Shown here piece by piece: positions 15,946 to 58,245 of a stretch of DNA of 64,000 nt. The notes below the pieces were generated by a model, which worked only from the letters and a program-made list of their open reading frames with translations, had not been told where the DNA came from and made no database searches. The DNA comes from an uncultured Anaerolineales bacterium (lineage in GTDB: Bacteria; Chloroflexota; Anaerolineae; UBA4142; SHND01): positions 41,336 through 105,335 of the forward strand of contig CAYXXF010000021.1 in NCBI GenBank assembly GCA_964469005.1. Direction: 5' to 3'. Both the position numbers and the translations under genes were made by a program. How positions within the stretch are numbered: position 1 is the stretch's first letter; every line of letters starts with the position of its first letter.

Positions 15946-16003
15946 TTCGCGATGACCGAACGATTATAGGCATGATAACGCATTGCGTCAAAGCAGTGCG
16001 CGC

Positions 16004-16041
16004 AAAATAAAAAAAGGTGCAGCATTGTGAATGCTGCACCT
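16004..16041 (-). terminator. Rho-independent terminator after the DUF11 gene
   Basis: 12-bp stem AGGTGCAGCATT / AATGCTGCACCT with a 3-nt loop, followed by a T run on the minus strand. Confidence 0.85.
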
Positions 16042-16059
16042 GAACATGTCAGAAACGGT

Positions 16060-19000
16060 TCAATTGGACTTTTTATGACGGATTGAAATTTCGTCGCTCC
16101 ACCTTGCTTCGCCCTGCACTAGTACAATCTCAATTCGATAGACGTACTTTTTGCCTACTTTGACAGATTTATCGAGGTACGAGTACTTTTCACTGCTTAT
16201 CGTACCAACGGATTTGGCATCAATCAGATTGGCATTCAGTTTCTTCCACTCGGTCCCCTTGCTCGTTTTACGCCAAACGTTAAACCCAATTATCTCGAGT
16301 TCATTTCCGGTTTGCCATTTGACTCGAATACCTTTTGGCGCAGAACCTGCTTTGAAGGCGAGAAGGTCCGCCGAGGTCGGTGAACTCGCCGTGTACGTTG
16401 CAGAAGATTGCGCGGTGTATTGTGTATTGTTCGCCGTGCCGTTCACAGTCGCGGTGTTTGGATGGGTGCCGACGGCGGCGCTGATGGGTCCTGCAACACA
16501 GGTCGAGGTGGGGTCTTGGGACGCTGACGCAACAGGCAAAGGACTTGGCCAACCGCTGTTGCACGATGACACACTCAGCATCGTATCCGTCAGATTGATC
16601 AAAGTCAGTGCGACATCTCCCGTATTCTCTACAATGAATCTGTACCAGAGCTGCGTGCCTGTATTCGTTGACAGTGATTTGAACCAGGGTCCGCTCGAGC
16701 TCGTTCCGACTTGCTTAAGGAGAGAGATGGAAGGACTCGACGCGCGTACTGATAACGAAGCGATTGCGGTATTCCCATTCACGGTTTGGGAGTTGATAAT
16801 GTGCGAAACATTGCCGCTCGTGTTGTTGTACGCTCCCGCAGTGGGTGCAGTCACGTTCACCGAAATCGTACAAGTGCCGCCCGCCGTCAACGAGCCCCCC
16901 GAAAGGCTCAGAGTGCCTGCACCTGCCGTTGCCGTGAGTGTACCACCACAGGTGTTGCTTGCGCCATTCGGATTTGCAATGAGCATATTTGCAGGTGATG
17001 TCGGCAGCGTATCCGAGAATGCGACCCCACTCAACGCGTTATTCTGATTCGGGTTCGTAATCAGAAATGTCAACGTAGATACGCCATTCGCCACTATGGT
17101 ACTCGGCGAGAATTGTTTGGAAATGCTCGGCGGCGAAACGGCGACCAGATTCGCGGTGGCAAAACCTGTGCTTGTACTGTTTGTTCCTGTTTCCGATGTG
17201 GAAATGAATCCACTCACGTTGTTGTGCGGACCTGCCGTTGTCGCTTTTACCCGAACGCTGATAGTACATGTGTTGTTTCCCGCGACATTCGCTGCGAGTG
17301 TACCACCGGTGAGAGAAATTGTACTGCCGCCTGCGGTAGCATTCACTGTGCCGCCGCAGGTATTGGTCGTATTCGGCGGGGAAGAAATCACCACACCCGT
17401 CGGCAACGTGTCGCTAACCGCAATACCGCTCAACGTATTGTTATAGTTCGCACCGATTGCGTTCGGATTGGTGATGGTGAACGTGAGGGTGGACTCATAC
17501 ACTGTCCCACCGCTCACTGCGACCGGGTTGGGCGAAAAACTCTTGACAATTGTTGGCGGATTCGGCGGCACGGGACAGCCGGTAAAGACGATGTTGTCCA
17601 AGCGAATCGTTGCCGTAGATTTGCTTGAATTTCTAGAATCGGCAGTGATGCGAAAACGGGTGGTGCCGGTGCCGTTGTTCGTGGAAGTGGTTATCGGGAT
17701 GCTGAGCCAGCTACCCTTGTTCACGTTCGATATTGTCGCCACCAGTGTGTCCGCGCCATTATTCGCGCTGGTATAAATGTAAAAATGGTTATCGGTCTGC
17801 GAAGCCCAATCACCACCTGCTTCGAGGTCATAATCGAACTGAATCGTGATGCCGCCATATTTGCTGGTATCCAGCGTGAATTGAAAATATGGTGCAACCG
17901 CGCCGGGCGCACCTGTTGTCGAGGGCCAAGCATCCACAATTTGCCACGCGTTCGTTTGTCCGGTATTGCCTGCGACAATGCTCTGCGAACCCGCGCCGGT
18001 CAGACTTGCCGCCGCCGTCGCGGTTGTAACATCCGCTACCTTGCTTGTGTACGGTGGCGGCGGTCCGCCTGAACCCTGTCCGCTAGTTGGCATACTCCAA
18101 CGCGCGATTTCTACTTTTTGCGTACACGTCGAAGGCGGCACAGGGTCGGGGAAGGTTTGCGTCGTGAGTGTGGCGCTCGCATTTTTTCCGGTATTCAACG
18201 AATTGATAAAGAGATTGTTGGTCGTGTTGTTGAACGGTCCTGCCGTCGTAGGTGTAACATTCACACTTATCGTACACGTACTACTTGCCGCGACGGTGCC
18301 ATTTGAAAAAGTGAGTGAGGTCGCGGCTGCGGCTGGCGCAAAGGTTGGACTGCCGCATCCTGAAGTGCTTGCGCTAGGCGTAGCGGCGACTTGCAGACCG
18401 GCGGGCAGTGGGTCGGTAAAGTTATAACCTGAAAGCGGACCGGGGTTTGGATTTGACAACGTAATTGTCAGGACTGAAATGCCGTTGACGGTGGTCGAAC
18501 TCGGCGTGAAACTTTTCGCGATTCCTACATTCGTCGGGTCCACGATATTGGCGATGCGGAAACCGGTCGTATAGTCCGCGTTGTAGTGAAAACTGCTGCC
18601 GGAGAAATCATAGAGCAGTGAACTGAGGGTTTGCGATGAACCTCCGCCGCTGATGATGGTCACGTTATACGTCATCGTGACGTTTCCGCCCGTCTTGTAA
18701 TCTCCACCTATGCACGAACGATAGTTCGGACTCGTCGGGACGTTATCCCACGTACATGCGTCGGCATAGAGTTTGTCATTGGGGTTGGAAACGGGTGAGC
18801 CGGGAGAATTCGCGGTGTATGTAGTGTTGACGGAATTGATTTGAAAGATGGTATTCGGAAAGTTGATAAAGGACTCGAACTCATTGTAACCGTTCGTGGC
18901 GGTGAAACCGACCAATTGGATATTGTATGTGTTGCCAACCACGAGCGTCATCGAGCCGCCGGCAGGAATGGAGGTGCTATCGAGTTTGACATCGGTAATC

Positions 19001-19494
19001 CCATTGCGGCTCTGCGAAATGAGATGCTCGACATAGAGTTGGCGCGGCGTAGGTGTGCTGGTAACGCCAAGTCCGTTCGCCGTAACCTCGACGTGAAAAT
19101 TGCGCGTCGTATCATACGCTGCTGCATCCCGCGTCACCTGAACTTCAAAATAGAAATCGGTGCAGGCATTCACCGCCAGATTTGATTTAGTAAGCGGATT
19201 GCTGGAACCCGGGCGGATGTTGATATAGGAATTCAAAGTGTCCCACGCCAACGTCGCAGCGACGTTATTCGCAACAGCATCGCCCGTATTGCACACACGC
19301 GCACCGACCGGAAAATTCTGCGGTCCGACATTGACGTTGTTGCTATCCAAGCCAATGATGTTCCACGTGATGGGCGTAACCGTCAGAGTGGCAGCCGCGT
19401 GGACAGTGGCAGGCGCGCCCATGACAACTCCCAACACAAACAGTCCAATAACCGCAAGGTGCGCGCGAAATGATTTGCTAATCAAGTAGCTCAT
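16060..19494 (-). CDS. Large secreted surface/adhesin-like protein with DUF11-type repeats and a C-terminal FN3-like domain
   Basis: 1144 aa with a signal peptide ending VHAA. Repeats IAKSFTPS..LTITLSNPN, IVKSFSPN..LTFTITNPN, ISKQFSPS..LTFLITNPN, LLKQVG..YRFIVENTGDV. S/T/N/G-rich. Confidence 0.82.
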   Translation of the reverse strand: MSYLISKSFRAHLAVIGLFVLGVVMGAPATVHAAATLTVTPITWNIIGLDSNNVNVGPQNFPVGARVCNTGDAVANNVAATLAWDTLNSYINIRPGSSNPLTKSNLAVNACTDFYFEVQVTRDAAAYDTTRNFHVEVTANGLGVTSTPTPRQLYVEHLISQSRNGITDVKLDSTSIPAGGSMTLVVGNTYNIQLVGFTATNGYNEFESFINFPNTIFQINSVNTTYTANSPGSPVSNPNDKLYADACTWDNVPTSPNYRSCIGGDYKTGGNVTMTYNVTIISGGGSSQTLSSLLYDFSGSSFHYNADYTTGFRIANIVDPTNVGIAKSFTPSSTTVNGISVLTITLSNPNPGPLSGYNFTDPLPAGLQVAATPSASTSGCGSPTFAPAAAATSLTFSNGTVAASSTCTISVNVTPTTAGPFNNTTNNLFINSLNTGKNASATLTTQTFPDPVPPSTCTQKVEIARWSMPTSGQGSGGPPPPYTSKVADVTTATAAASLTGAGSQSIVAGNTGQTNAWQIVDAWPSTTGAPGAVAPYFQFTLDTSKYGGITIQFDYDLEAGGDWASQTDNHFYIYTSANNGADTLVATISNVNKGSWLSIPITTSTNNGTGTTRFRITADSRNSSKSTATIRLDNIVFTGCPVPPNPPTIVKSFSPNPVAVSGGTVYESTLTFTITNPNAIGANYNNTLSGIAVSDTLPTGVVISSPPNTTNTCGGTVNATAGGSTISLTGGTLAANVAGNNTCTISVRVKATTAGPHNNVSGFISTSETGTNSTSTGFATANLVAVSPPSISKQFSPSTIVANGVSTLTFLITNPNQNNALSGVAFSDTLPTSPANMLIANPNGASNTCGGTLTATAGAGTLSLSGGSLTAGGTCTISVNVTAPTAGAYNNTSGNVSHIINSQTVNGNTAIASLSVRASSPSISLLKQVGTSSSGPWFKSLSTNTGTQLWYRFIVENTGDVALTLINLTDTMLSVSSCNSGWPSPLPVASASQDPTSTCVAGPISAAVGTHPNTATVNGTANNTQYTAQSSATYTASSPTSADLLAFKAGSAPKGIRVKWQTGNELEIIGFNVWRKTSKGTEWKKLNANLIDAKSVGTISSEKYSYLDKSVKVGKKYVYRIEIVLVQGEARWSDEISIRHKKSN

Positions 19495-19814
19495 GCAAAA
19501 TTCTTTACCCTCTCAGATCAAGATCTCGTGATTGCGTAGTAATGTGTAAGAGCCGATTGGATATGGCTCTGTAAAACTCTATTCTGAAAAAACAAAAAAC
19601 CGTGTAGTGCGTGCCCAAGCACGACTCACGGTCAGATATGTCGCTTGCTCTAATCTGCACATCGCGCCCGACGCGAGGGGTACGGCGCAGTGCAACAGAG
19701 TATGATCGCTTCTATATATTCAATTTATTGAAATTGTACCAACCGAACATTAAGAGGAAGATTAGCATCGCATCCAGAAGGGTCATATACGGGAAGGTTT
19801 AATGGAATTGTAAT

Positions 19815-20864
19815 CTATGGCGCAAACTGAATCCATTTTTGAGTCGCTTCATCAAATCCAAAGACATAATCGGTGCGGCGGTCTTCACTCGTCGCGGACA
19901 AGGTGAAATTGAAATCAATTCCGCGCACGAGCATTTGAGTGCGCGTGTTGAAATCAATGCGGCGCGGTTTGTTGAATGCGCCATTCAATGTCACTTCCAA
20001 ACGCGGTTCGCCCCAAAAATTTCCTTTCTCATTCAACGCCATCGAAAAAATTTCCGGTGTGCGCGCGGAACCAAAATACAAACGCTTGCCCGTCGACAAA
20101 TTGTACGCCGCGAGTCCAAAGCCATCGAAATTATTGAATTGGTCTGCCACCTGGCCCGTTTTCAAATCCACGCGATAAATGCGCCCCACTTGTTGCGCGC
20201 GCGTGGAACCCATCACGCTTGTAACGTACAAACTATTGGTGTCGCAATCAAATGCGAGCGCGAGAATGCCGTATGGATTTTCCGGCGAAGGCGGCAGTGC
20301 GGAAGGCAATTTCAAAAATTCGCTCATCACTCCAGTCTCGGTATCCACTTTGTATAGGATGTTGGCTTTTTCCGGTGGGTTGTCAATCAAACTGATGCGC
20401 GGACTGGGCGCGACAAAAACATTGCCCAAGTTGTCCACCACAAACGTTCCGAGATAACCGCCCATCGTCCACGATGGATGCTGATATTTTTTCGCGTTCT
20501 CTAACTTGCCGTCGGCGCCCGGTTCATACAGTTGCAGTCCTTTGTTCAAACGTTCCGACGTACTGAAAACCACCGCGCGCGAAAAACCCAATTTCGCGAT
20601 GGGGAATTTTGGCGTGCCGCGACATTGATTGACCGGACCCGGCAGCCAATTTGATGCGAGTTTTGGCTCCGCGTTTTGTGTGCCGCTTGGCGTATTCAAC
20701 CACACGAGCGCGCCGCCGATTGCCAACACCGCGACAATTCCAAACAAGGCGATGTACAAACCGAGACGATTCGCGGAGGCAGTGTCAGATGCGCGTGACT
20801 CATTGACGCGCGATTCAAGTTTAACTTGTTGAAGCGGACTAGTGCGTTTCTTTTTGGTGGACAT
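19815..20864 (-). CDS. Membrane-anchored extracytoplasmic protein, probable beta-propeller
   Basis: One N-terminal TM helix (LYIALFGIVAVLAIGGALVWL), then short beta-rich repeats (FVVDNLGNVFV, YGILALAFDCDTNSLYV, GRIYRVD). Confidence 0.6.
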   Translation of the reverse strand: MSTKKKRTSPLQQVKLESRVNESRASDTASANRLGLYIALFGIVAVLAIGGALVWLNTPSGTQNAEPKLASNWLPGPVNQCRGTPKFPIAKLGFSRAVVFSTSERLNKGLQLYEPGADGKLENAKKYQHPSWTMGGYLGTFVVDNLGNVFVAPSPRISLIDNPPEKANILYKVDTETGVMSEFLKLPSALPPSPENPYGILALAFDCDTNSLYVTSVMGSTRAQQVGRIYRVDLKTGQVADQFNNFDGFGLAAYNLSTGKRLYFGSARTPEIFSMALNEKGNFWGEPRLEVTLNGAFNKPRRIDFNTRTQMLVRGIDFNFTLSATSEDRRTDYVFGFDEATQKWIQFAP

Positions 20865-20986
20865 GGAGATTAGTGATTGGAGATTGGAAGATGGAATGTT
20901 GTATTTTGGAATTACAAGTGATGCTTCACGCTTCTCGTTTCACGATACGCGATTTGCAAACTGCCATCGCGCAGGAATCGGCGCAG

Positions 20987-22735
20987 CTATTTGCCATTCA
21001 CAATTGGGTTGAACAATGGACCACTGTAGCATGGATACGCGCGCGGATTATAAATTCCGTTTTCTAGTACAACATCCGCCCAACAGTATTCTTTGTTCGG
21101 CGTGTTGTCGTTTTTCAATTGCGCGACGTACCACAACACAAGATTCGTGTTGCCAATCGCTTCGTCGTTCAAAAATTTTTCGGGACCCTGACGAAAATCG
21201 GTGTTGCAGCACGGACCTATCGTCGGTAAATCCGACGCGCCCTCGTCGCGGTTTGGGTCATTGCGCGTGACAAACACCATCGCATTGTCACCGCGTTCAT
21301 ATTTTGAAAATTGCAGGCGTCCGGTTTGCATATTAAAGCCCGCGCCTTGCGCGTTCACAATGCGAAACGAAACACCCGCGTCATTTTCGGGAACGTCGGC
21401 GGCAAGTTTCCATTGTTCCGTTTCCCAATTTTTCCACGCGCCGTTCGACCATTCCGCAAACGTGAATGGCTGCGCCCACTCGATGCGTGTGACGGGGCGA
21501 TACGTTCCTTCGGTGCCGCAGCCGCGTCCGAGATTTGCCGCAATGAGCCGAAAACTGCCATCGTCATGAAATTGAAAACGCTGCTGGTAATAATAATTAC
21601 ACGGCAGGGGCCAGAACTCGCTGAAAAAATCTTGCACGAGTTCAAAGCCAATGCGTTTGCCGTCTTGCATCAAATCCAAAACTTGCGGTCCCGTGAACGC
21701 GACGACAGCCGCTTGCGAAAAAACGGGACAACCAATTGCATCACTGTATCCGAAACCTTCACCCGTCGAATAGCTCACATGCCAATCCACGACTTTGGCG
21801 CTCGTCAAAATTTTGTTGCCTTGATATTCCACGTCCGAAACGCGCAAACCATCGGAACTCGTCAAGATAAAATTCATTTTCCAAGCGCCGTTCGCCAACG
21901 CGTTTTCCTTTTCACAAAAATTCGCGGCAACGACATCATTTTGCAGCGTGCGTTCGGTGAGCGGCGGACCATTGAGCGAACCGAGATTCGTCCAACGCGT
22001 GCCGACCAAAACATTGTCCGTCAAATCTACAATCGCCCACAACGCGCGGTCACCCACTTTGAACGTCGGTGCCAGACAATAATGCAGTGAGCGTTCGCAT
22101 TGCGACGCCTTGAGCGATGTTTTTGTATTCGCCATCATTGCCTGCGCGTTATCGGGCGTGTAACCCAATGCCTGCTGCACTTGCGGAGAATTTTTGGCAA
22201 TCTCGATTGCCAGATCCACCAACGCTTGCGGCGGGTCGGGCTGGGTGTTTTCGTATTGATTGATTGCCATCACACGCTGCGTATTCAATTCCACAATCGC
22301 GGCGGTTAAAAGATTCAACGCATAATTGTACATTTCCACGCGATAACATTTCGTCGTGCGACAAATCGCGGCTTGTCCCACAAAATCACTTGCGCGCAAT
22401 GGCACCACACCAAAAATTTCCGCGCGCAATGTTTTACCATCGCCCGTCCGCGTGTTCTCCGTAAAGCGCGGGTCACGCAGTGCAATGATTTGCGCGTCAG
22501 CGCGTTCGCCGTCCAAACCGAGCAGCGGCAGCACCGCGCCATTTTTCAGCGCATCCGCAACCTGAAACTGCCGCGTCGCCACAACGGGAAGCAACGCACT
22601 TGGCGTTTCCCGCACCGCAAGCACACCGGCTTCAATCGTTGGCGTCGGCGGAACGCGCGTGGGCAGCGGTTGCCCACAGGCGACAAGAAAAACGAGAGAA
22701 ACGAAAAACGAAAAAATGAGACCACGAACCATCAT
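20987..22735 (-). CDS. Lipoprotein with copper-amine-oxidase-like sequence motifs, lacking recognisable Cu-ligand histidines
   Basis: Lipobox LVAC. ATG 22735 overlaps the avd TGA. CAO-like segments: AIVELNTQRV..TQPDPP..AIEIAKNSPQVQQALG, WKMNF..SDGLRVSDVEY.G..IL, YSD, CNYYY..FQFHDDGSF, TNLVLWY. Confidence 0.6.
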   Translation of the reverse strand: MMVRGLIFSFFVSLVFLVACGQPLPTRVPPTPTIEAGVLAVRETPSALLPVVATRQFQVADALKNGAVLPLLGLDGERADAQIIALRDPRFTENTRTGDGKTLRAEIFGVVPLRASDFVGQAAICRTTKCYRVEMYNYALNLLTAAIVELNTQRVMAINQYENTQPDPPQALVDLAIEIAKNSPQVQQALGYTPDNAQAMMANTKTSLKASQCERSLHYCLAPTFKVGDRALWAIVDLTDNVLVGTRWTNLGSLNGPPLTERTLQNDVVAANFCEKENALANGAWKMNFILTSSDGLRVSDVEYQGNKILTSAKVVDWHVSYSTGEGFGYSDAIGCPVFSQAAVVAFTGPQVLDLMQDGKRIGFELVQDFFSEFWPLPCNYYYQQRFQFHDDGSFRLIAANLGRGCGTEGTYRPVTRIEWAQPFTFAEWSNGAWKNWETEQWKLAADVPENDAGVSFRIVNAQGAGFNMQTGRLQFSKYERGDNAMVFVTRNDPNRDEGASDLPTIGPCCNTDFRQGPEKFLNDEAIGNTNLVLWYVAQLKNDNTPNKEYCWADVVLENGIYNPRAYPCYSGPLFNPIVNGK

Positions 22736-23085
22736 GCTGTGTCTGCTCCACCTTTGTTCAACCAACCGCCAAGCAAACGCCCCACCTCATTCGTGAGGCG
22801 CGCACTGTGTTCGAATCCTGCCGCGTCTAATAATTGCAACTCGCTAGCCAAACGCAAATTGGTTCGCAATTCCGCCAGTTCGATATCCGCACGCGTCAAC
22901 GCGTCGCGCTTGTGGTTCACGTTTTTCACTTTCGCGGCGAACAATAACGCGCGCTGCAAATCGAACGCATTACTCTGTATGCGTGTCGCCAGCGAGAAAC
23001 GATATTCGCGCGAAAATTTCAACGTGCGCGGCAAGAGCCACAAAAGTAATTCATACGTTTTGACGAAAATGGGAGATTCCATCAT
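22732..23085 (-). CDS. avd: DGR accessory variability determinant (Avd, four-helix bundle)
   Basis: 117 aa. SPIFVKTYELLLWL, KFSREYRFSLATRI, LRTNLRLASEL, EVGRLLGGW. ATG 23085 overlaps the RT stop (ATGA). Confidence 0.92.
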   Translation of the reverse strand: MMESPIFVKTYELLLWLLPRTLKFSREYRFSLATRIQSNAFDLQRALLFAAKVKNVNHKRDALTRADIELAELRTNLRLASELQLLDAAGFEHSARLTNEVGRLLGGWLNKGGADTA

Positions 23086-24137
23086 AGCGGCATCGCGTGG
23101 AATAATTTCGCGCGCAAGCGTTTCGTATTCCCATGCCGCGCGTGGGCAATCCACGCCTGCGTCGAACGGTCGAGCGTTTCGAAATCAATTTCGCGTGTTT
23201 GATACGCGCGCGTCAATTTACGAAATCGTTCCACAAAATCGCACACATTGTCGCGTTTCAAGCGGCGGCGTTCGGGATACACGCGCCAGCCCAAAAAGGG
23301 AATGCCGTTGTGTACGGGATAAACTACCGTTTTGCGCGGATGCGTCACGAGGCGCAGCGTTTGTAAAAATTTCTCGATGGCTGCGCGCCATTCCCATAGT
23401 ACGCGTTTCTCGTTCGAGAACAAAACAAAATCATCCACGTAACGCACATACGCTTTTACTTTTAATTCCCGTTTCACAAATTGGTCCAACTCGTTCAAAT
23501 ACACATTCGCCCAAAATTGCGAGGTGAGATTGCCGATGGGCAACCCGCGCGGACGATTGACGGCGAATAAATCATCGTCCGGGAAATACTGCATGATGTA
23601 CTGGTCACGATGAATTTCCGCGCCGCTCGCCAAAATTTTTTCAATCAGCCACAACACCTGTTCATCGGCGATAGGACGCGCGAGAATTTTGAAAAGAATC
23701 GCGTGGTCAATCGAAGGGAAACACTGCGCAATGTCGCCTTGTAACGCGTATTTATATTTTTGTGAAAAATCCTGCGCGCGGTCGAGCGCGCGGTGGGTCC
23801 CCTTCTTTTTGCGATTCGCATACGAGTCAAAAATAAATTTGCGTTCGAATATCGGTTCAATAATGTTGCAGAGCGCGTGATGCACCACGCGGTCACGAAA
23901 CGGCGCCGCGCTCACCAAGCGTTTTTTGCGGTCATCCAAACGAAAACTGTGATACGCGCCCGGCGTGTACGTTTGCGCGCGTAACTCTTCTTGCAGTTGC
24001 AGCAATTCGTCCTCAAAATTGAATTCGAATCGAAACACCTGCTGCTTGTCGCGCTTGCCGCGCCGCGCTTTATAGTACGCGTTCAACAAATTCGCGAACG
24101 TGTTGATTTGTGGATAGAGTTCGTCGTAACGTTTCAT
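23082..24137 (-). CDS. DGR-class reverse transcriptase
   Basis: 351 aa. KKRLVSAAPFRDRVVHHAL, GTHRAL, GDIAQCFPSIDH, GLPIGNLTSQFWANVYL (DGR-type SQ motif), YVRYVDDF, FLG. No maturase or endonuclease domain. Confidence 0.96.
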   Translation of the reverse strand: MKRYDELYPQINTFANLLNAYYKARRGKRDKQQVFRFEFNFEDELLQLQEELRAQTYTPGAYHSFRLDDRKKRLVSAAPFRDRVVHHALCNIIEPIFERKFIFDSYANRKKKGTHRALDRAQDFSQKYKYALQGDIAQCFPSIDHAILFKILARPIADEQVLWLIEKILASGAEIHRDQYIMQYFPDDDLFAVNRPRGLPIGNLTSQFWANVYLNELDQFVKRELKVKAYVRYVDDFVLFSNEKRVLWEWRAAIEKFLQTLRLVTHPRKTVVYPVHNGIPFLGWRVYPERRRLKRDNVCDFVERFRKLTRAYQTREIDFETLDRSTQAWIAHARHGNTKRLRAKLFHAMPL

Positions 24138-24176
24138 CTTTGTACACCTGTCGGCTACCTATCCCTCACCCCCCTA

Positions 24177-24201
24177 CCCCCTCTCCCAAAGGGAGAGGGG
24201 G
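24177..24201. repeat. Hairpin CCCCCTCTCCC-AAA-GGGAGAGGGGG between target and RT
   Basis: Perfect 11-bp stem, 3-nt loop. Confidence 0.7.
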
Positions 24202-24232
24202 AGAAATCAAAAGCGCAGCTAGCTGGAGGGTG

Positions 24233-24266
24233 AGACCTTTCGGGTTTTCGGAAACCCGAAAGGTCT
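24233..24266. repeat. Perfect 15-bp hairpin (family A palindrome) downstream of VR
   Basis: AGACCTTTCGGGTTT-TCGG-AAACCCGAAAGGTCT. Confidence 0.75.
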
Positions 24267-24307
24267 GTCCTTCCAACACCTATCCGCTTACATCCTCCCC
24301 ACCGCGA

Positions 24308-24335
24308 CAGAAAACAGAATTCAGAATTCAGAATA
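24308..24335 (-). repeat. Degenerate heptamer array just after the target stop codon
   Basis: Minus strand: TATTCTG AATTCTG AATTCTG TTTTCTG. Confidence 0.65.
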
Positions 24336-24342
24336 CAACTGC

Positions 24343-27036
24343 CTAACGGAACGACTCGGCAACGCGAAACCCGTCATCGTTGTAGCGGTCGCGCGGGACG
24401 CTGTAGTAGCGGCCCGCGGCGCGGGCGTCGTCGGAATCATAGATGAACGAGCCGCCGCGTAGAACCTTGGTGTCCTTATCATAATCGCTGCTCGTCCATT
24501 CCCAAACATTGCCACACATATCCAACGCGCCGCAAGGACTCGCGCCCTCCAGAAAAATGCCCACAGGTGAAGTGCCGCCCAAACCCAACTCGCGTGTATT
24601 CGCTTTTTGTTTTTCGAACTCGTCGCCCCAAGGATATTTGCGTCCATCGGTTCCCCGCGCCGCGCGTTCCCATTCCTGTTCCGTCGGCAAACGAAATTTT
24701 CGTTTCGTCGTTTGGCTCAACCATTCGCAGTATGCCACAGCATCATGCCACGAAACGCCGCGCACAGGATAATTGGAACGCGCTGGCGCAAAACTGCGTG
24801 TTGTCTCATCCCATTCAAAACCTGGGACGGCATGCTGCATCGCGTCAACAAACTTTTTGTATTGCTGATTCGTCACGAGATATTTGGCGATACGGAAGGG
24901 CTGTTCAATTTTTTCCGCGCGTTTTTCATCGCCGTACAAAAATTCGCCTGCAGGAACGTCGAGCATTTCATCAAAATTGCGCGGGTCGCCCAATTTTCCC
25001 AACGCTTGCGCAGCCGCAAGCCGCACGCGAAATTCTGAATCGGTATCAACGATGGCGACAAGCGTCGGCACAAATTGCGACAGCGCAAGTTCATTCATCA
25101 ATTCCGCCGCGCGCGCGCGTTCGACGCCGTCAGTGGTTTCACGCGCGCGCGCAATGTGTTGCAAACGTTCCAGCGTCTCGTCGCGCCAACGCGCTTGAAG
25201 CATCACTTTTTCGGTCAAGGCGCGCGCGGCAGTGAACACACTCGCGGCGCGCGGCGAATGTAACAATTGTTCCGCAATGAAATTCGCGTGTTCATGCGGC
25301 GGCATCGCCATATACAAGAGGGTCACTTCTTCCCAAACGGGATTCGCCAAACTATCGAGCAGCGGCGTCGGCACGCCAAGCGTTTTCGACAACGCATCCG
25401 CCGCGAGATATTCTTGAAACGTGAGATGCGAAAACGTGACGAGTCCTTCGCCCGTTTCTTTATCTGTGCCGATTTCGCGCAAGATGCCGCTCTCTTGTTT
25501 CACGCCCTCGAGCCAAGCCTGCGCTTTTTCCACACATGCCAGATAACGCGCGTTCGGTTCTGCGGGCAGCAGCGCGGGAATCAAGTTTGGCAAATGGTCG
25601 GCAATGATACGTTCGGCGCGAGTGCGTAACAGTGGGACTTGTCCTTCGCTCCCATCAGAGCGCTGCTGTTGAATTTCCAACGCCAACGCGCGCAGCAAAA
25701 TAATTTTTTGTTCCAAATTCAACTCGTCGCGGCGCGCGCTCGCCAATTGCAATTCGCCTTTTTTGCGGTCACGCCAACGTTCGGTGAGAATCTCGACGCA
25801 ATCGCGATACAGGATGTGGCGTTCCTCAGGAAACTCCAAACGCACGGAATGAACCAACACAATCAACGAAAGCAAAAGCGGGTTTTCGGCAAGGTCGCGC
25901 AAGCGCGTATTGCGATTCAAAACCGCTTTCAAGCGCGCAGCGCGTTCCGCATAATCACGTTCCAAAAATTTTTTGCGCGCCTCCGCTTCGCCCACACCGT
26001 CGCGAATCGCATAGGCGCGATACAATTGTTCCACCAACCGCACGCTGTCGCGCGGCGTCAAGGGCTGGACGGTTTGTTCCGCGAAACCCAGCGCGCCAAG
26101 TTGTCCTTCGTATCCCACTTTGCGCGTGGTCGCGAGAAAACGATTTTTACGTTCGCCATACGCATTCAACAAACCCGCGACATGCTCCGCCATCGCTTGA
26201 CGCGCGCCCGGACTGCCCAATTCGTCGAACGCGTCAAGCAGCACAATACAGTCGCCGCGTTCCAAACGATGTTTGAAAAAATCGGGCGGACACGGCACCA
26301 AAATCTGCCGCGCAAATTCATCTTGAAACGCGTCAAGCAAGGTTCGTGTTTTGCCCCAACCCAACACATCGCTTTGTCTGCCCAACGAAACAAAAATCGG
26401 AAACGGGCGCGTTTTCCAACCGAGACGTTCGCGCACCAAATTGCGCGCATCGCCTTCACGCGGCTTGTTCCGCCGCGCCCGCGCGCACGTCACTGCGAGA
26501 TATTTCAGCAAGGTTGTTTTACCGGACCCCGGGTCGCCGCGAATCACGAGACGCGGAAATTGTTCAAGTGTACGCCCAAGTTCACTCCCGTATTGTTTTG
26601 GTTCGGGACGAAAGCGTTCGGGAACGAAACGCCACAACCCGCGCGGGCGATACATACGCCCCATCCGTTGGTCCAAAATAAAGAGGTCAGTGTCCTCACG
26701 CGGCTCACTTTGTCCCGTTCCCGTCAAGCGCAATTCCACAAACACTTTTTCCAATTCCGCGCCTTGCGCGCTCGGCACATTTGCCGCAATGTTGCTGGGC
26801 AATAATCCCAACGACATGTTGCGCTGAATCATCCAATCCAAATAGGCGCGCTCAAACTTGTAATCGGCGCCGCGTCCGCTCGCAAAGGCGAACAACGCTT
26901 CACCGCCTCTTTGTATTTGGCGGAGCAGCCACGGTACAAGTTCGCGCAAAAACAACCCAAGAAAAAAAAGAATGACCCCGACAATCAGCGCGTTGCTGCC
27001 ATAATTTTTGATGAATTCGTCAAGCCAAGTAGGCAT
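24343..27036 (-). CDS. DGR target: TM-NACHT NTPase-HEAT-FGE-sulfatase (CLec-fold) protein
   Basis: TM at about aa 16-36. Walker A GDPGSGKT, Walker B VLLDAFDE, FLATTR, NPLLL, FSHLTFQEYLAA. HEAT RVRLAAAQALGKLGDPR. FGE motifs VTNQQY, VSWHDAVAYCEWL, RLPTEQEWERAARG, MCGNVWEW, RGGS, GFRV. Confidence 0.92.
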   Translation of the reverse strand: MPTWLDEFIKNYGSNALIVGVILFFLGLFLRELVPWLLRQIQRGGEALFAFASGRGADYKFERAYLDWMIQRNMSLGLLPSNIAANVPSAQGAELEKVFVELRLTGTGQSEPREDTDLFILDQRMGRMYRPRGLWRFVPERFRPEPKQYGSELGRTLEQFPRLVIRGDPGSGKTTLLKYLAVTCARARRNKPREGDARNLVRERLGWKTRPFPIFVSLGRQSDVLGWGKTRTLLDAFQDEFARQILVPCPPDFFKHRLERGDCIVLLDAFDELGSPGARQAMAEHVAGLLNAYGERKNRFLATTRKVGYEGQLGALGFAEQTVQPLTPRDSVRLVEQLYRAYAIRDGVGEAEARKKFLERDYAERAARLKAVLNRNTRLRDLAENPLLLSLIVLVHSVRLEFPEERHILYRDCVEILTERWRDRKKGELQLASARRDELNLEQKIILLRALALEIQQQRSDGSEGQVPLLRTRAERIIADHLPNLIPALLPAEPNARYLACVEKAQAWLEGVKQESGILREIGTDKETGEGLVTFSHLTFQEYLAADALSKTLGVPTPLLDSLANPVWEEVTLLYMAMPPHEHANFIAEQLLHSPRAASVFTAARALTEKVMLQARWRDETLERLQHIARARETTDGVERARAAELMNELALSQFVPTLVAIVDTDSEFRVRLAAAQALGKLGDPRNFDEMLDVPAGEFLYGDEKRAEKIEQPFRIAKYLVTNQQYKKFVDAMQHAVPGFEWDETTRSFAPARSNYPVRGVSWHDAVAYCEWLSQTTKRKFRLPTEQEWERAARGTDGRKYPWGDEFEKQKANTRELGLGGTSPVGIFLEGASPCGALDMCGNVWEWTSSDYDKDTKVLRGGSFIYDSDDARAAGRYYSVPRDRYNDDGFRVAESFR
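24350..24461 (-). repeat. DGR variable repeat (VR), the 3' end of the target gene
   Basis: Ungapped 112-bp match to 27269-27380 with 18 mismatches, all opposite TR adenines. Encodes RGGSFIYDSDDARAAGRYYSVPRDRYNDDGFRVAES. Confidence 0.97.
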
Positions 27037-27268
27037 TGGTGTACCCGTCTCAAACGTGACAGGTCGAGCGAACTTGGTTCGCCACGAGACACTGTCACGT
27101 TTGAGAATTGGAGAGGAACTTCTGGCTCCAACCCTGCGGAGGGAGCCAGACCGTACCTTTTTGTCTCACGCGAAATACATCGCGCCGAGACCGGACAGAG
27201 CTGTCATGTTCCGTTGGCTCGCGGCGGCGCGTCACGTTTGACCCACCACATTTCTGAGCGCAAATGAA
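27037..27268 (-). ncRNA. Putative structured DGR spacer RNA downstream of TR
   Basis: 232 nt with several stems: 15-bp inverted repeat 27048-27062/27092-27106 enclosing GCGAAC-TTG-GTTCGC, 9-bp TCTGGCTCC/GGAGCCAGA (27121-27150), and GTCTC-CGCGA/TCGCG-GAGAC (27163-27191). Confidence 0.5.
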
Positions 27269-27380
27269 AATGATTCGGCAACGCGAAACCCGTTATTGTT
27301 GTTGCGGTTGTGCGGGTTGTTGTTGTTGCGGTTCGCGGCGCGGGCGTTGTCGGATTCATTGTTGAACGAGCCGCCGCGTA
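27269..27380 (-). ncRNA. DGR template repeat (TR)
   Basis: In the target frame it reads RGGSFNNESDNARAANRNNNNPHNRNNNNGFRVAES, with 13 AAY codons. 34 adenines, 18 of which differ in VR. Confidence 0.97.
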
Positions 27381-27406
27381 TTTTGTTCGCGCCGTCCTTG
27401 GCGGTG

Positions 27407-27415
27407 ATTGTAGCA
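27407..27415 (-). promoter_or_regulatory. Extended -10 promoter for the TR/DGR transcript
   Basis: TGCTACAAT on the minus strand, 26 nt upstream of the TR homology boundary. Confidence 0.55.
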
Positions 27416-27435
27416 TGATTGAGGCGGAAATTCGG

Positions 27436-27550
27436 GCGAATTAAATTCGCAACAACAACAACGCGAAACGTCCCTACGGGCGTTGGGAGGTGGATGGTGT
27501 CTAGTCTGCGGAGGCAGACTTGCGTCTTTGTTGCGGTGATTTCAATCGCC
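27436..27550. repeat. Composite symmetric REP-like element at the DGR right boundary
   Basis: Four short hairpins in A-B...B'-A' order: GCGAAT/ATTCGC, AACG.CCC/GGGCGTT, AGTCTGC/GCAGACT, GGTGATT/AATCGCC. Confidence 0.55.
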
Positions 27551-27576
27551 CATATAATTCAACCAGAGGAAAATCA

Positions 27577-28737
27577 ATGAGAATCATTCTATACACAGGC
27601 AAAGGCGGCGTTGGAAAAACGTCCGTCGCCGCAGCAACGGCATTACGCTGCGCGGAATTGGGCTATCGCACGATTGTATTGTCAACCGACGCGGCACACT
27701 CGCTCGCTGATTCATTCGACTTGAAAATTGGGCAAGAGCCAATCGAAATTGCGCCGAAACTCAACGCGCAAGAAATTGACGTGTTGTATCAAATGGAAAA
27801 ATACTGGGGCAAAGTGCAAGCGTATTTTCGTTCACTCTTGCAATGGCGCGGCGTGGATGAATTGATTGCAGATGAAGTAAGCATTCTGCCGGGGATGGAT
27901 GAACTCGCGTCGCTGTTGCAAATTGTTTATCTCGCGGAATCGGGCAAGTACGACGTAATCATTGTGGATTGCGCGCCAACGGGTGAAACGTTAAAACTCC
28001 TTTCACTCCCCGAAGTCGCGCGTTGGTATCTCACACACATTTTCCCCATCGAAAAAATGGCAATGCGTTTTGCATCGCCCGTGATGCGCGCGGTCACGGA
28101 TATTCCCATGCCCGATGACCAAGTGTTTGATACCATCAAAGAATTGATTCAACAATTGAATCGCATGGCAGAGTTGTTGAGCGATACAAAAAAATCTTCG
28201 GTGCGCGTCGTATTGAATCCTGAAAAGATGGTCATCAAAGAAGCGCAGCGCACCTTCACGTACATCAATTTGTACGGCTTTGCGTGCGACCTCATTGTTT
28301 CGAATCGCGTGTTGCCCGAATCTGTGAATGACCCATATTTCGCCGTCTTGAAAGAATCGCAAACGCGTTACGGCAAAATGATTCAAGAATCATTCGCGCC
28401 TGTGCCAATCTTCCAAGTGCCGTTTTTCGACCAAGAGGTTGTTGGACTCGAAATGCTGCGGCGCACCGCAAACGCATTGTACGGCGCGCAAGACCCGTCG
28501 CAAGTATTTTACGAAGGCAGTCCGCAAGAAATTGTGAAAAACGGCAAGGGTTATATTTTGAAAATGAAGTTGCCGTTCGCCGCAAAAAGCGATGTGCATC
28601 TCACGCGCGCGGGCGACGAACTCGCGATTAGTGTTGGGAATTTTCGCCGCAATGCGATCTTACCGCGCGCACTGGCAGCGCTCGAGGTGCAAAAAGCGAA
28701 AATGGAAGACGGAAAACTTGTCGTGAATTTTGCGTGA
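27577..28737 (+). CDS. ArsA/GET3-family ATPase with C-terminal HSP20-like domain
   Basis: YTGKGGVGKTS, STDAAHSL, ILPGMDE, DCAPTGETL, RTFTYINLY. C-terminal beta domain. TATAAT at 27553-27558 and GAGG RBS. Confidence 0.9.
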   Translation: MRIILYTGKGGVGKTSVAAATALRCAELGYRTIVLSTDAAHSLADSFDLKIGQEPIEIAPKLNAQEIDVLYQMEKYWGKVQAYFRSLLQWRGVDELIADEVSILPGMDELASLLQIVYLAESGKYDVIIVDCAPTGETLKLLSLPEVARWYLTHIFPIEKMAMRFASPVMRAVTDIPMPDDQVFDTIKELIQQLNRMAELLSDTKKSSVRVVLNPEKMVIKEAQRTFTYINLYGFACDLIVSNRVLPESVNDPYFAVLKESQTRYGKMIQESFAPVPIFQVPFFDQEVVGLEMLRRTANALYGAQDPSQVFYEGSPQEIVKNGKGYILKMKLPFAAKSDVHLTRAGDELAISVGNFRRNAILPRALAALEVQKAKMEDGKLVVNFA

Positions 28738-35477: not shown

Positions 35478-36491
35478 ATGCCAAAACGCGTCTATATCGC
35501 CTACACGGGCGGAACGATTGGAATGATTGATGCAGGCGAAGGATACGCGCCTGCGCCGGGATTTCTTGAGCAGCGTTTGCGCGAAATGCCTGAACTGCGC
35601 GACGCGGCGATGCCCGAAATTGTTTTGCACGAATACACTCCCCTGCTCGATTCCTCCAACATGACCCCGCGCGAATGGCTTGCCATCGCGCGGGATATTT
35701 TTTTGAATTATGACGCGTTTGATGGCTTTGTCGTTTTGCACGGCACGGATACGATGGCGTACACGGCATCTGCGCTGCCATTTCTTTTGCAAGGACTGAA
35801 CAAGCCCGTCATCCTCACGGGTTCACAAATTCCCCTCATCGAATTGCGGAATGATGCGCGCGAAAACCTAATCACCGCGCTTTTGCTCGCGGCAAATTAT
35901 GCCATTCCTGAAGTGTGTTTGTATTTTGGCGCGAAATTATTTCGTGGCTGCCGCACGGCAAAAGTGAGCGCGTTGGGATTCGATGCGTTCGATTCACCCA
36001 ACTATCCGCCGCTCGGAAATGTGGGAATAGATATTCAGTTGAATTGGAATTTGATTCGCGCGGCATCGGAAAAAATTTTGTCTGCGCCGCCGAACGAATT
36101 GAACGCAACGATTGCATCACTGCGCTTGTTCCCCGGCATCTCGGCAGAATTTTTGCGCAATGTTTTGAAACCACCGCTGCAAGGTTTGGTGTTGGAAGCA
36201 TACGGCACAGGCAACGCGCCGAATCACGATAAAGAATTTCTGAACGCGTTGCAAGAAGCAACCGCGCGCGGTGTTGTGATTGTAGATTGCACACAATGTC
36301 TGCGCGGCGCCGTAAAATTGAACGCGTATGCGACAGGCGCGGCATTGCTCGATGTTGGCGTTGTGAGTGGCGCGGACATGACGCCGATTGCGGCACTTAC
36401 GAAATTGAATTATCTCATTAGCACCGGTCATTCATTTCAAGAAACGCGCGCGTTGATGCAGCAAGATTTGTGTGGTGAAATTTCAGTTTGA
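35478..36491 (+). CDS. ansA: Type I (cytoplasmic) L-asparaginase
   Basis: YTGGTIGM, LLDSSNMTP, HGTDTMAYTAS, PVILTGSQIP, GLVLEAYGTGNAP, DMTPIAALTKL. Confidence 0.95.
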   Translation: MPKRVYIAYTGGTIGMIDAGEGYAPAPGFLEQRLREMPELRDAAMPEIVLHEYTPLLDSSNMTPREWLAIARDIFLNYDAFDGFVVLHGTDTMAYTASALPFLLQGLNKPVILTGSQIPLIELRNDARENLITALLLAANYAIPEVCLYFGAKLFRGCRTAKVSALGFDAFDSPNYPPLGNVGIDIQLNWNLIRAASEKILSAPPNELNATIASLRLFPGISAEFLRNVLKPPLQGLVLEAYGTGNAPNHDKEFLNALQEATARGVVIVDCTQCLRGAVKLNAYATGAALLDVGVVSGADMTPIAALTKLNYLISTGHSFQETRALMQQDLCGEISV

Positions 36492-36506
36492 TTGTAGAAT
36501 AAACAC

Positions 36507-38168
36507 ATGAGTAAAGTATTTGTCATCGGTCTCGACGGCGCAACCTTCGATTTGATTCATCCGTTTATCGCGCAAGGTTTTCTTCCGAATCTCCAGTCTC
36601 TAATCTCTCTCGGTTCCTCCGCAGAATTATCATCCACCATTCCCCCCGTCACCGCGTCCGCGTGGACGAGCTTTATGACGGGAAAAAATCCCGGCAAGCA
36701 TGGGCTGTTTGATTTCATGCAGCGCCGCGAAAACTTGTACGACCTCGCACCCGTTTCAAGTTTCCATCGCGACGGCAAAGCAGTGTGGGAAATCGCGAGC
36801 GAACACGGGAAAAAATCTATCGTGATGGGTGTACCGGTCACCTATCCACCGACGCCGTTGAATGGATTGATAGTGACGGGGATGTTGACGCCGCGCGGCG
36901 CGGACGATTACACGTATCCTGCCGAATTGAAAACCGAAATCAGACAAGCGATTGGCGAATACGTTGTCTATTCCGACGAAGTGTATTCCAAAGGGCGCGG
37001 CGAAATTTTTTTGAACGCGTTACATTATTCGATTCAACAGCGCGCGAAAACAGCCGCGTATCTATTGCACAAATACGAATGGGATTTGGGAATTTTAGTT
37101 TTTCCCGAAACGGATACTGTATGTCACGGTTTGTGGTGGGCGTACGATGAAACACATCATCAACACAGGCAAGAAGATTTCACGAAATTTCAAAATGGTA
37201 TTCGCGACATTTATCGCGACATTGATGCATACATCGGTGAACTCGTCGCGTCGCTGCCAAACGATACGACTATTCTCGTCATGTCCGACCATGGACACGG
37301 ACCGCTGCGGAATTTTTTGTACGTCAACAATTTTCTAAAACAGCGTGGCTATTTGAAAATCAAAAACGCGCCCGCATCGCAAATCAAAAATCTCGCGTTC
37401 AACGCGGGACTCACGCCGCGCACCGCGTACGGGATGCTGCTCAACATGGGATTGGGAAAATTACGACGCACAATGGACAAACGGCGCGGTGGGCGCGGAC
37501 TATTGAAACGATTTTTTCTTTCGCTCAACGACGTAGATTGGGAAAACACGCGCGCGTACTCGATTGGCTATATTGGCGAAGTCCACGTTAACGTCAACGG
37601 ACGCGAACCGCGCGGCATTGTCGAACGCGGCGCAGAATACGAACGCGTGCGCGATGAATTGATTCAGGATTTGCGCGAATTGAAATTGCCAAATGGGGAA
37701 CCGTTGATTGAATACATTTGGAAAAAAGAAGAAATATATCACGGCGCGCATATAGACGACGCGCCTGACATATTATTTTTTCCGAAAAATTTAGAAACCA
37801 TTGCGTTCGGCGATTTTGAATTTGGCTCGAATAAAATTCTCGAACCTTCCTTCGGCGTTTCTTCTTCGCACCGCATGAATGGCATCCTTCTCGCACAAGG
37901 CGAGTCAATCAAACCCAATCACCCAATCACCCAATCGCCCAATTTGACCGACCTTGCGCCAACTATCTTGCACCTTCTCAATCTCCCAATCCCGTGCGAC
38001 ATGGACGGACGCGTGTTGAGTGAAATGTTTTTGGATGCGCGCGCGATTGAATACGGCGGCAGCGCGGAGTTGGAACGAGTGCGAGGTGACAAGCGCAGCG
38101 AAGCGTATTCGGAAGAGGACGAAGCACAAGTACTGGAACGCCTAAAAGATTTGGGGTATATCTCGTAA
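36507..38168 (+). CDS. Alkaline phosphatase-superfamily (type I phosphodiesterase/NPP) protein
   Basis: IGLDGATFD, STIPPVTASAWTSFMTGKNPGKHG, VMSDHG, SSHRMNG, DLAPTILHL. C-terminal YSEEDEAQVLERLKDLGYI. Confidence 0.9.
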   Translation: MSKVFVIGLDGATFDLIHPFIAQGFLPNLQSLISLGSSAELSSTIPPVTASAWTSFMTGKNPGKHGLFDFMQRRENLYDLAPVSSFHRDGKAVWEIASEHGKKSIVMGVPVTYPPTPLNGLIVTGMLTPRGADDYTYPAELKTEIRQAIGEYVVYSDEVYSKGRGEIFLNALHYSIQQRAKTAAYLLHKYEWDLGILVFPETDTVCHGLWWAYDETHHQHRQEDFTKFQNGIRDIYRDIDAYIGELVASLPNDTTILVMSDHGHGPLRNFLYVNNFLKQRGYLKIKNAPASQIKNLAFNAGLTPRTAYGMLLNMGLGKLRRTMDKRRGGRGLLKRFFLSLNDVDWENTRAYSIGYIGEVHVNVNGREPRGIVERGAEYERVRDELIQDLRELKLPNGEPLIEYIWKKEEIYHGAHIDDAPDILFFPKNLETIAFGDFEFGSNKILEPSFGVSSSHRMNGILLAQGESIKPNHPITQSPNLTDLAPTILHLLNLPIPCDMDGRVLSEMFLDARAIEYGGSAELERVRGDKRSEAYSEEDEAQVLERLKDLGYIS

Positions 38169-58112: not shown

Positions 58113-58206
58113 GGGGGTAGTTTCGTCCCGGTGGGCGGCGCGGTCTTCAAAATCGTTGCGAGGCGGTGGTACCGTCTTGGGTGGGTTCGACTCCCATCTA
58201 CTCCCG
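58113..58206 (+). tRNA. selC: tRNA-Sec (UCA)
   Basis: 8-bp acceptor stem (GGGGGTAG/CTACTCCC), G discriminator, 6-bp D stem with 4-nt loop, anticodon loop CTTCAAA, long variable arm, 5-bp T stem with TTCGACT. CCA is not encoded. Confidence 0.95.
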
Positions 58207-58212
58207 TTTTGG

Positions 58213-58245
58213 AAACGTGACAGAATTCCGAATCCTGTCACGTTT
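58213..58245. terminator. Palindrome between tRNA-Sec and the convergent permease (family A variant)
   Basis: AAACGTGACAG-11 nt-CTGTCACGTTT. The same 11-bp arms occur in the DGR spacer. Confidence 0.65.

Follow-up and report, generated by a model that had tools for sequence, protein, structure and literature searches.

We analysed a stretch of 64,000 nucleotides (the window) from an uncultured Anaerolineales bacterium (contig CAYXXF010000021.1) whose minus strand carries a diversity-generating retroelement (DGR) with its parts in the order template repeat (TR), a 232-nt spacer, a target gene with the variable repeat (VR), the reverse transcriptase (RT) gene and avd. The locus is a genuine and complete DGR. 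Most probably, it is a chromosomal DGR of an RT clade common in Anaerolineae and works in the manner of the Bordetella prototype, and its order arose by rearrangement of a cassette in which one target gene (T1) stands ahead of RT, avd, TR and the spacer RNA (Sp) and another (T2) behind them, T1-RT-avd-TR-Sp-T2. Nothing about the machinery is out of the ordinary; what is unusual is the gene order alone.

A complete DGR in an order rare within its clade

TR and VR (Table 1) align without a gap over their full length and differ at 18 positions, every one of them an adenine in TR (18 of 34); at the non-adenine positions of TR no difference is found (0 of 78). In the target protein the FGE-sulfatase domain spans residues 689-893 (4.6e-47), and VR codes for the final ~37 residues. 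The RT has both motifs of the DGR type ([I/L/V]GxxxSQ and YxDD), as IGNLTSQ at residue 201 and YVDD at residue 233, and its homologues in the relatives all adjoin A-biased TR/VR pairs. The avd start overlaps the RT stop codon, as read from the sequence. The DGR would diversify the C-terminal lectin-fold sensor of one STAND/NACHT protein. No further VR for this TR was found in the 6.56-Mb genome, and remote targets considered on two other contigs (C11 and C9) were rejected, since both matches are the ends of unrelated FGE domains. DGRs of filamentous and multicellular bacteria (Dore et al. 2024, PMC10907252) likewise have NACHT/STAND NTPase targets with a C-terminal FGE/CLec domain that contains VR, and the window resembles them also in its host, of a filamentous-type Chloroflexota lineage, and in the presence of several DGRs in the genome; that study covers duplicated targets, transposon decay and degenerate loci and deals with neither the TR-first order nor the Sp RNA.

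The RT clade to which the window DGR belongs is common in Anaerolineae, with a homologue at E<1e-40 in 96 of the 401 genomes sampled from the class. A second DGR in the same genome (C18:35378-37364, also given as 35593-37364) has the canonical order VR-avd-TR-RT. Its TR and VR show 22 mismatches, all at adenines, and its RT is 57% identical to that of the window.

For the gene order we drew on a census in which RT, Avd and A-biased repeat pairs were located in 14 loci from genomes, 80 from metagenomes and 64 excised regions of related genomes; 68 cassettes with at least 4 kb upstream and at least 2 kb downstream of RT were kept. The layouts found were VR-RT-avd-TR (30 cassettes), VR-RT-avd-TR-VR (8), VR-avd-TR-RT (7), VR-TR-RT-avd (3) and VR-avd-TR-RT-VR (3), with the rest spread over minor patterns. 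The TR-VR-RT-avd order occurs in the window alone, one cassette of the 68, and is thus rare within its own clade; avd in the last position is also seen in the three VR-TR-RT-avd loci. Nor does the window have the canonical order of BPP-1, an avd-TR-RT core with the target upstream (architecture B1 of Wu et al.). The window order also appears clearly derived.

The nearest relatives indicate from what. These are L125, which comes from the same genus and has an RT and an Avd each 71% identical to those of the window, L126/L097 (a single locus, G281:C19), L001 and L127. The first, L126 and L001 are laid out as T1-RT-avd-TR-spacer-T2, and L127 as VR-RT-avd-TR, with T2 not found. The window target is 48-49% identical over its full length to T2 of L125 and L126, compared to 30% for T1, and by this measure it is the orthologue of T2. 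Because the closest relatives have the layout T1-RT-avd-TR-spacer-T2 and the window target corresponds to T2, the window order reads as a circular permutation of RT-avd-TR-spacer-T2. Having TR and the spacer immediately ahead of the target would then be the normal state for T2 in this subclade, and the change would consist of the placement of RT-avd after T2 and the loss of T1. Compared to the clade layouts VR-RT-avd-TR and VR-RT-avd-TR-VR, the window shares a homologous RT (52-71% identity), Avd, TR, the Sp RNA and T2, and differs in having RT-avd after T2 and not before TR, in lacking T1 and in carrying a repeat like repetitive extragenic palindromic (REP) elements between Sp and T2.

We infer that the window order derives from a rearranged ancestral T1-RT-avd-TR-Sp-T2 cassette. 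In L126, VR and the ~125 nt downstream of it stand in near-identical form behind both T1 and T2, as direct repeats. Recombination between such repeats would excise a circle of RT-avd-TR-Sp-T2, and opening of this circle between avd and TR would yield exactly TR-Sp-T2-RT-avd; a tandem duplication followed by deletions at the flanks would have an equal outcome. The hairpin CCCUCUCC...GGAGAGGG is found ahead of RT both in the window and downstream of VR1 in L126, but not downstream of VR2 in L126, which lends small support to this path. Repeats of this kind could also have misled the assembler, as relatives carry two near-identical copies of ~230 nt, and the order could then be an artefact of a mis-join that fused two loci across VR and the repeat downstream of it. 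We consider this highly improbable: the locus lies inside a 114-kb contig of a 97% complete genome in 37 contigs, TR has a single VR, there is no truncated T1 at a contig end, the sequence is unique at either outer junction and the start of the next gene lies within the end of avd. Even with a mis-join, TR would have no RT-avd upstream of it.

An earlier note on this DNA had read the minus strand as TR, a 232-nt spacer, target, RT and avd, and the repeats, open reading frames (ORFs) and Pfam domains bear this out. It had also called the architecture unusual. That much stands for the comparison with relatives (one of 68), but the order is a permutation of a layout of the clade, TR-Sp already precedes T2 there, and surveys list many orders. 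Published surveys give 48 (PMC5758913), 122 (PMC6642488) and 35-38 (PMC11661182) cassette patterns and state that DGR components may sit on different strands and that co-transcription of TR and RT is not required; according to Wu et al., TR and RT may even be on opposite strands (PMC5758913). The note was therefore too generous on novelty, the window being a rearranged member of a well-populated DGR clade, and as an architecture it is a minor entry because the surveys already list many cassette orders. It can also be viewed as a natural experiment: RT-avd has been shifted from before TR to after the target in a module of RT, Avd and RNA that is otherwise the same and that still works or did so until recently. 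This would be in line with the leader-TR-Sp RNA module being the only part that has to be kept whole.

A covarying RNA behind TR and an inserted repeat

The spacer (27268-27037, minus strand) has a predicted fold of -114 kcal/mol (z = -5.7 versus shuffles), and its first ~150 nt align as a conserved DGR RNA that appears homologous to the element behind TR in the relatives. In the alignment of relatives this RNA comprises a linker of 20-30 nt, the motif CCRGAAAU, a hairpin H1 with a one-base interruption and a tetraloop that is often YACG, a CGAGGC-like motif with A/G-rich bases, bases resembling GGCCUGUUCCYGG, a hairpin H2 that varies, an unpaired stretch similar to GCAAAUAUNNAAA and a long hairpin H3, with a base of ~10 bp followed by a CU internal loop. 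The Sp of the second DGR in the same genome follows the same CCAGAAAU/H1/H3 plan. A covariance model (R1), built from 25 relatives with the window excluded, found 65 related loci at E<0.01, always directly after TR and most of them outside the seed. A search of Rfam over 24000-27700 matched no family, except for a chance miRNA match.

Three helices covary across the relatives: H1, H3 and the duplex that Sp forms with the leader ahead of TR. On the R1 alignment H1 is 86% paired, versus 56% in shuffles, and its covariation score is 0.559 versus 0.186 (0 of 500 shuffles), with slid partners scoring at most 0.165. The basal 8 bp of H3 are canonical in 264 of 264 cells from 33 loci with 23 distinct strands, a figure into which canonical pairing is partly built, as the H3 stems were chosen from RNAfold output; the independent part of the H3 evidence is its fixed register relative to the A-rich motif. 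The leader:Sp duplex comprises 12-13 bp between the GGCCUGUUCCYGG region and the 10-20 nt ahead of TR. Many compensatory variants occur (among them UAGGGACAGGCC/GGCCUGUUCCUG, GGGGUAGAUUC/GAAUCUACUCC and UGGGGCCGGAUCG/CGAUCCGGUCCCG), and cognate pairs are more stable than non-cognate ones (p=1.5e-7). Pairing of the CCRGAAAU region with the UUCCYGG region, considered by eye, was dropped, since the leader:Sp duplex explains this region better.

In the window the elements follow one another in the order given in Table 1, and its H3 is homologous to that of L098 (GGUCCUGCUCCCUCCGG...GUUGGAGCAGGACC), with two compensatory pair changes. The order of the elements in the Sp of the window and of the relatives matches that of the Bordetella DGR RNA, for which a cryo-EM study (bioRxiv 10.1101/2023.10.23.563531) describes a stem-loop that binds Avd, the region of the primer, an avd:Sp duplex termed 'cPRT Stop', a short stem-loop with adenosines after it, the unpaired 'Thumb Ring' and a stem, interrupted by internal loops, that binds RT; its authors predicted the first two of these for 207 of 278 DGRs. 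Roles for the elements of the window would be assigned by analogy with these. In common with the Bordetella BPP-1 DGR (mtd-avd-TR-Sp-brt; Handa et al. 2018, PMC6182149), the window has an adenine-specific TR/VR pair, an RT with IGxxxSQ, Avd and apparently the same series of RNA elements. In order, these are a tetraloop-capped stem-loop after TR, a region that could pair with the 3′ end of TR, the leader:Sp duplex, a short stem-loop with adenosines after it, an unpaired stretch and a long stem that contains internal loops. The two differ in that the Bordetella Sp runs into the RT gene, whereas the Sp of the window runs into the target gene. Unlike Bordetella, the window clade has the 20-30-nt linker and CCRGAAAU before the first stem-loop, and there is no sequence similarity. 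The comparison set is more useful than the window: its covarying Sp RNA of ~150-170 nt, from a DGR clade present in about a quarter of the sampled Anaerolineae genomes, could seed a covariance model for finding TRs and tests of cis-priming outside Proteobacteria.

Table 1. Coordinates of the DGR of the window, its RNA elements and neighbouring features
Feature	Position	Strand	Description
TR	27380-27269	minus	112 nt, 34 adenines
VR	24461-24350	minus	112 nt, 3′ end of the target gene
Target gene	27036-24343	minus	897 aa; Pfam: NACHT (STAND NTPase), HEAT repeats, FGE-sulfatase (C-type-lectin fold)
RT	24137-23082	minus	351 aa; RVT_1 8.8e-23
Avd	23085-22732	minus	117 aa; bAvd PF22296 1.7e-17, 64 bits versus a cut-off of 40
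Conserved Sp RNA	27268-27121	minus	from alignments with relatives, the R1 model and covariation of H1 and H3
Leader strand GGACGGCGC	27397-27389	minus	upstream-of-TR half of the distal duplex, the analogue of the Bordetella avd:Sp 'cPRT Stop' duplex
CUCAGAAAU	27258-27250	minus	after the linker
H1	27249-27224	minus	6+4 bp, one G.G mismatch, AACG tetraloop
CGCGAGCC region	between H1 and the duplex strand	minus	placed by element order in Sp
Duplex strand GCUCUGUCC	27201-27193	minus	pairs with the leader strand GGACGGCGC
H2	27190-27164	minus	bulged 10 bp
A-rich single strand	27163-27152	minus	between H2 and H3
H3	27150-27121 (arms 27150-27142 / 27129-27121)	minus	9 bp, CU/UU internal loop, short tip
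REP-like palindromic repeat	27106-27048		59 nt; 15-bp arms 27106-27092 / 27062-27048 and an inner stem
Candidate extended -10 TGCTACAAT	27415-27407	minus	predicted transcription start ~27400-27398
Four tandem heptamers (ATTCTGA ATTCTGA ATTCTGT TTTCTGT)	24334-24307	minus	directly after the target stop codon
Hairpin with 24-nt arms	24275-24224	minus	between VR and RT, 75 nt downstream of VR
Downstream genes	16015-22738	minus	copper-amine-oxidase-like lipoprotein, 349-aa ORF, 1144-aa DUF11/DUF7933 protein
Intrinsic terminator, strong	16041-16015	minus	end of the 11.5-kb block

The 3′ part of the spacer holds a 15-bp stem of different origin. The half-site of this stem, AAACGTGACAG, has 45 occurrences in the genome (6.56 Mb) versus ~3 expected, mostly in intergenic palindromes and often at gene ends, and the whole element of 51-60 nt, with its inner stem, is present at five other loci, on C26, C20, C11 and C3 (90-96% identity) and on C6 (76%). 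Furthermore, the gap between H3 and the start codon is ~35-40 nt in the closest relatives versus 84 nt in the window, 59 of which are palindrome. Because of these genome-wide copies and the shorter gap in the relatives, the stem is best read as a genomic repeat inserted between Sp and the target ATG, outside the DGR RNA. Like other REP and palindromic intergenic repeats, those of this family are short, imperfectly conserved, multi-copy, intergenic and often found at gene ends; the family differs in being specific to the genome or genus, as far as tested. Genome-wide, the family AAACGTGACAG(G)...(C)CUGUCACGUUU numbers ~22 full palindromes, many of them located where genes end and flanked by T-runs on either side, as bidirectional terminators are, and the 51-60-nt subfamily has six copies. 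One palindrome copy, at 58213-58245, follows a tRNA-Sec gene at 58113-58206 (plus strand).

In the earlier note the whole spacer had been proposed as a cis-priming RNA element with stems of 15 bp, 9 bp and a bulged 10 bp. All three stems exist, the 9-bp one being H3 and the bulged 10-bp one H2, and covariation of the spacer across related DGRs is found, in H1, H3 and the leader:Sp duplex. The proposal survives for the first ~150 nt, which are homologous to a covarying DGR RNA, but not for the 15-bp stem, which is a generic genomic palindrome foreign to that RNA; the caveat that it might be one was right and, given 45 half-sites and five full copies elsewhere, understated. H1, a fourth hairpin, and the pairing of the 20 nt upstream of TR with the spacer had been missed.

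Candidate promoter and proposed mechanism

Since TR heads the co-oriented block it would need a new promoter, which would be located in 27416-27576; this is the only room for a TR promoter, and it is shared with a divergent ArsA gene. The best promoter candidate is the extended -10 TGCTACAAT. A start ~7 nt past it would fall 1-3 nt ahead of the leader strand and leave a leader of ~20 nt, which is the length needed by the Bordetella element (PMC6182149). A promoter of its own for TR, as claimed in the earlier note, is plausible from position only. Four of the six TGNTANAAT sites in the window, a chance-level count, precede co-oriented genes. Because only 12 nt separate the palindrome from the target ATG and a scan found no sigma-70-like site on the minus strand within TR-Sp, co-transcription of TR-Sp with the target appears close to forced by geometry.

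In the mechanism that we favour, TGCTACAAT would give rise to an RNA whose start falls at the leader strand, the pairing partner of Sp. This RNA, made up of the ~20-nt leader, TR and the ~150-nt Sp, would fold around RT-Avd as in the Bordetella prototype and would prime cDNA synthesis in cis; adenines would be miscopied and the cDNA would then replace VR. TR-Sp would at the same time be the 5′ leader of the target-RT-avd message, and the 59-nt palindrome would be a later insertion of a genomic repeat that may act as a partial stop or processing site, a role that we regard as possible but unsupported.

If that role were the dominant one, TR-Sp would be mainly a separate short RNA, with most transcripts stopped or trimmed at the palindrome (27106-27048) and read-through reaching the target, RT and avd. 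Elsewhere the palindrome is found where genes end, often with a T-run behind it (examples are the copy after tRNA-Sec and the one at C18:101461), and a 3′ end just past Sp would resemble the ~140-nt Sp of Bordetella. In the window, however, the palindrome is followed by UUUGAGAC, with no U-run, it was not called in the terminator scan, and RT and Avd would depend on read-through or on an unseen internal promoter. We regard this as possible but doubtful.

The order could also be a functional innovation, as the earlier note proposed, in which the TR-Sp leader couples mutagenesis to the expression of target, RT and Avd and the stems are selected processing signals. The geometry does put TR-Sp in any target transcript, the order is unique among the 68 relatives and it is precisely the space from Sp to the start codon that a large hairpin occupies. 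However, relatives already have TR-Sp directly before T2 in a co-oriented cassette, so that coupling would not be new, the large hairpin belongs to a generic repeat that is complete at five other loci, a single occurrence of the order is no sign of selection, and elsewhere TR and RT may lie on opposite strands, as reported by Wu et al. (PMC5758913). These points render an innovation improbable. We give little credence also to a further version, in which the template RNA has turned into the obligatory 5′ leader of a long operon of target, RT, Avd and three surface/lipoprotein genes and the palindrome sets the ratio of free TR-Sp to full-length transcript; were it true, each round of target expression would also supply template RNA, a natural case of expression-coupled hypermutation.

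Several observations weigh against a rearranged clade member with Bordetella-like working, in addition to the canonical pairing partly built into the H3 figures. No rearrangement intermediate was found, which makes the path a reconstruction, and the right breakpoint can be placed only to 27416-27530. As for the promoter, the six occurrences of TGNTANAAT in the window compare to 6.0 expected, i.e. chance level, no -35 accompanies TGCTACAAT and the sigma-70 scan did not call the site. Pairing of the TR 3′ end with the CGAGGC of Sp as the primer duplex is no more than a suggestion, as it displays no cognate excess (p=0.58) and only anecdotal compensations. Finally, the Sp of the window is the weakest member seen. 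Its best R1 match, at the expected place (27260-27178, minus strand), scores 12.9 bits (E=0.26), compared to 24-75 bits for the loci at E<0.01, and a pooled search with R1 left the window, together with the three relatives nearest to it (L098, L125 and L126), below the E=1 level. Read from the sequence, the leader duplex of the window has 8 of 9 pairs versus 12-13 bp in the relatives, and its H3 is without the distal stem and the GGUA...GAA internal loop that the nearest relatives keep. Given the weak R1 scores, the homology of the window Sp rests mainly on alignment with L001, L097, L098 and L125 and on the shared order of elements.

Taken together, the low covariance-model score, the 8/9-bp duplex and the loss of the conserved inner part of H3 would fit a recently disabled remnant, in which the rearrangement and a degraded Sp (truncated H3, short leader duplex) ended retrohoming; in Bordetella, deletion of the RT-binding stem or disturbance of the avd:Sp duplex abolishes cDNA synthesis. 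On the other hand, the changes at 18 of 34 adenines with 0 of 78 differences at non-adenine positions argue against long inactivity, and the reading frames of RT and Avd are intact, with the catalytic motifs present in RT. We consider a remnant unlikely and favour a rearranged cassette that works as in Bordetella.

Elements downstream of VR and the genomic setting

The heptamer run behind the target stop codon has counterparts across the clade, where DGR targets have 3-7 imperfect heptamers (N)TTCTG(R) right after the stop (for example L001-L197 and, in the same genome, C18:35500-35550), usually followed by a GC-rich hairpin and a T-rich tract. At least three exact period-7 repeats occur in 44 of 144 segments downstream of VR, versus 3 of 2880 shuffles. 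The run may be an element for target-site recognition or pausing, distinct from the known initiation of mutagenic homing (IMH) sequence and hairpin, and we know of no description of such post-VR heptamer runs. In the window the heptamers lie between the hairpin with 24-nt arms and the GC-rich end of VR, which is identical to TR except at two adenines. By analogy with the element described in PMC3240598, this hairpin is possibly the post-VR hairpin/cruciform element.

The DGR forms part of a larger difference from related genomes. In three congeners the radical-SAM gene (window 14641-15945) lies only 160-650 nt from the ArsA-type ATPase gene (window 27577-28737), whereas in the window ~11.5 kb (~16000-27500) separate the two, and this block is absent from the three congeners. 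All of its members are on the minus strand: TR, Sp, target, RT, avd, the lipoprotein gene, the 349-aa ORF and the gene for the DUF11/DUF7933 protein. No integrase or transposase was seen in the block. The ATG of the copper-amine-oxidase-like lipoprotein gene overlaps the avd stop, and the RT/avd and avd/lipoprotein junctions both overlap as ATGATG (an ATGA stop/start overlap), which suggests translational coupling into non-DGR genes. The copper-amine-oxidase-like neighbour was rejected as a conserved DGR partner, since it is absent from five related genomes.

Two minor observations concern repeated sequences within the locus. The CCCUCUCC-loop-GGAGAGGG hairpin recurs as H2 in some relatives (the spacers of L001, L097, L051, L059 and L115) and before RT in the window (24200-24165) and in L126, and may represent a further mobile hairpin repeat in Chloroflexota. 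The sequence GTTTCGCGTTGTTGTTGTTGCG (27471-27448, minus strand), located upstream of the candidate -10, has 11 nt in common with the 3′ end of TR and VR (GTTTCGCGTTG), and the same stretch, GTTTCGCGTTG(TTG)n, is complementary at 17 of 18 positions to CGCAACAACAACAACCCG of TR; possible readings are the remains of a VR/TR end, a fragment of TR in inverted orientation or a chance match in low-complexity sequence.

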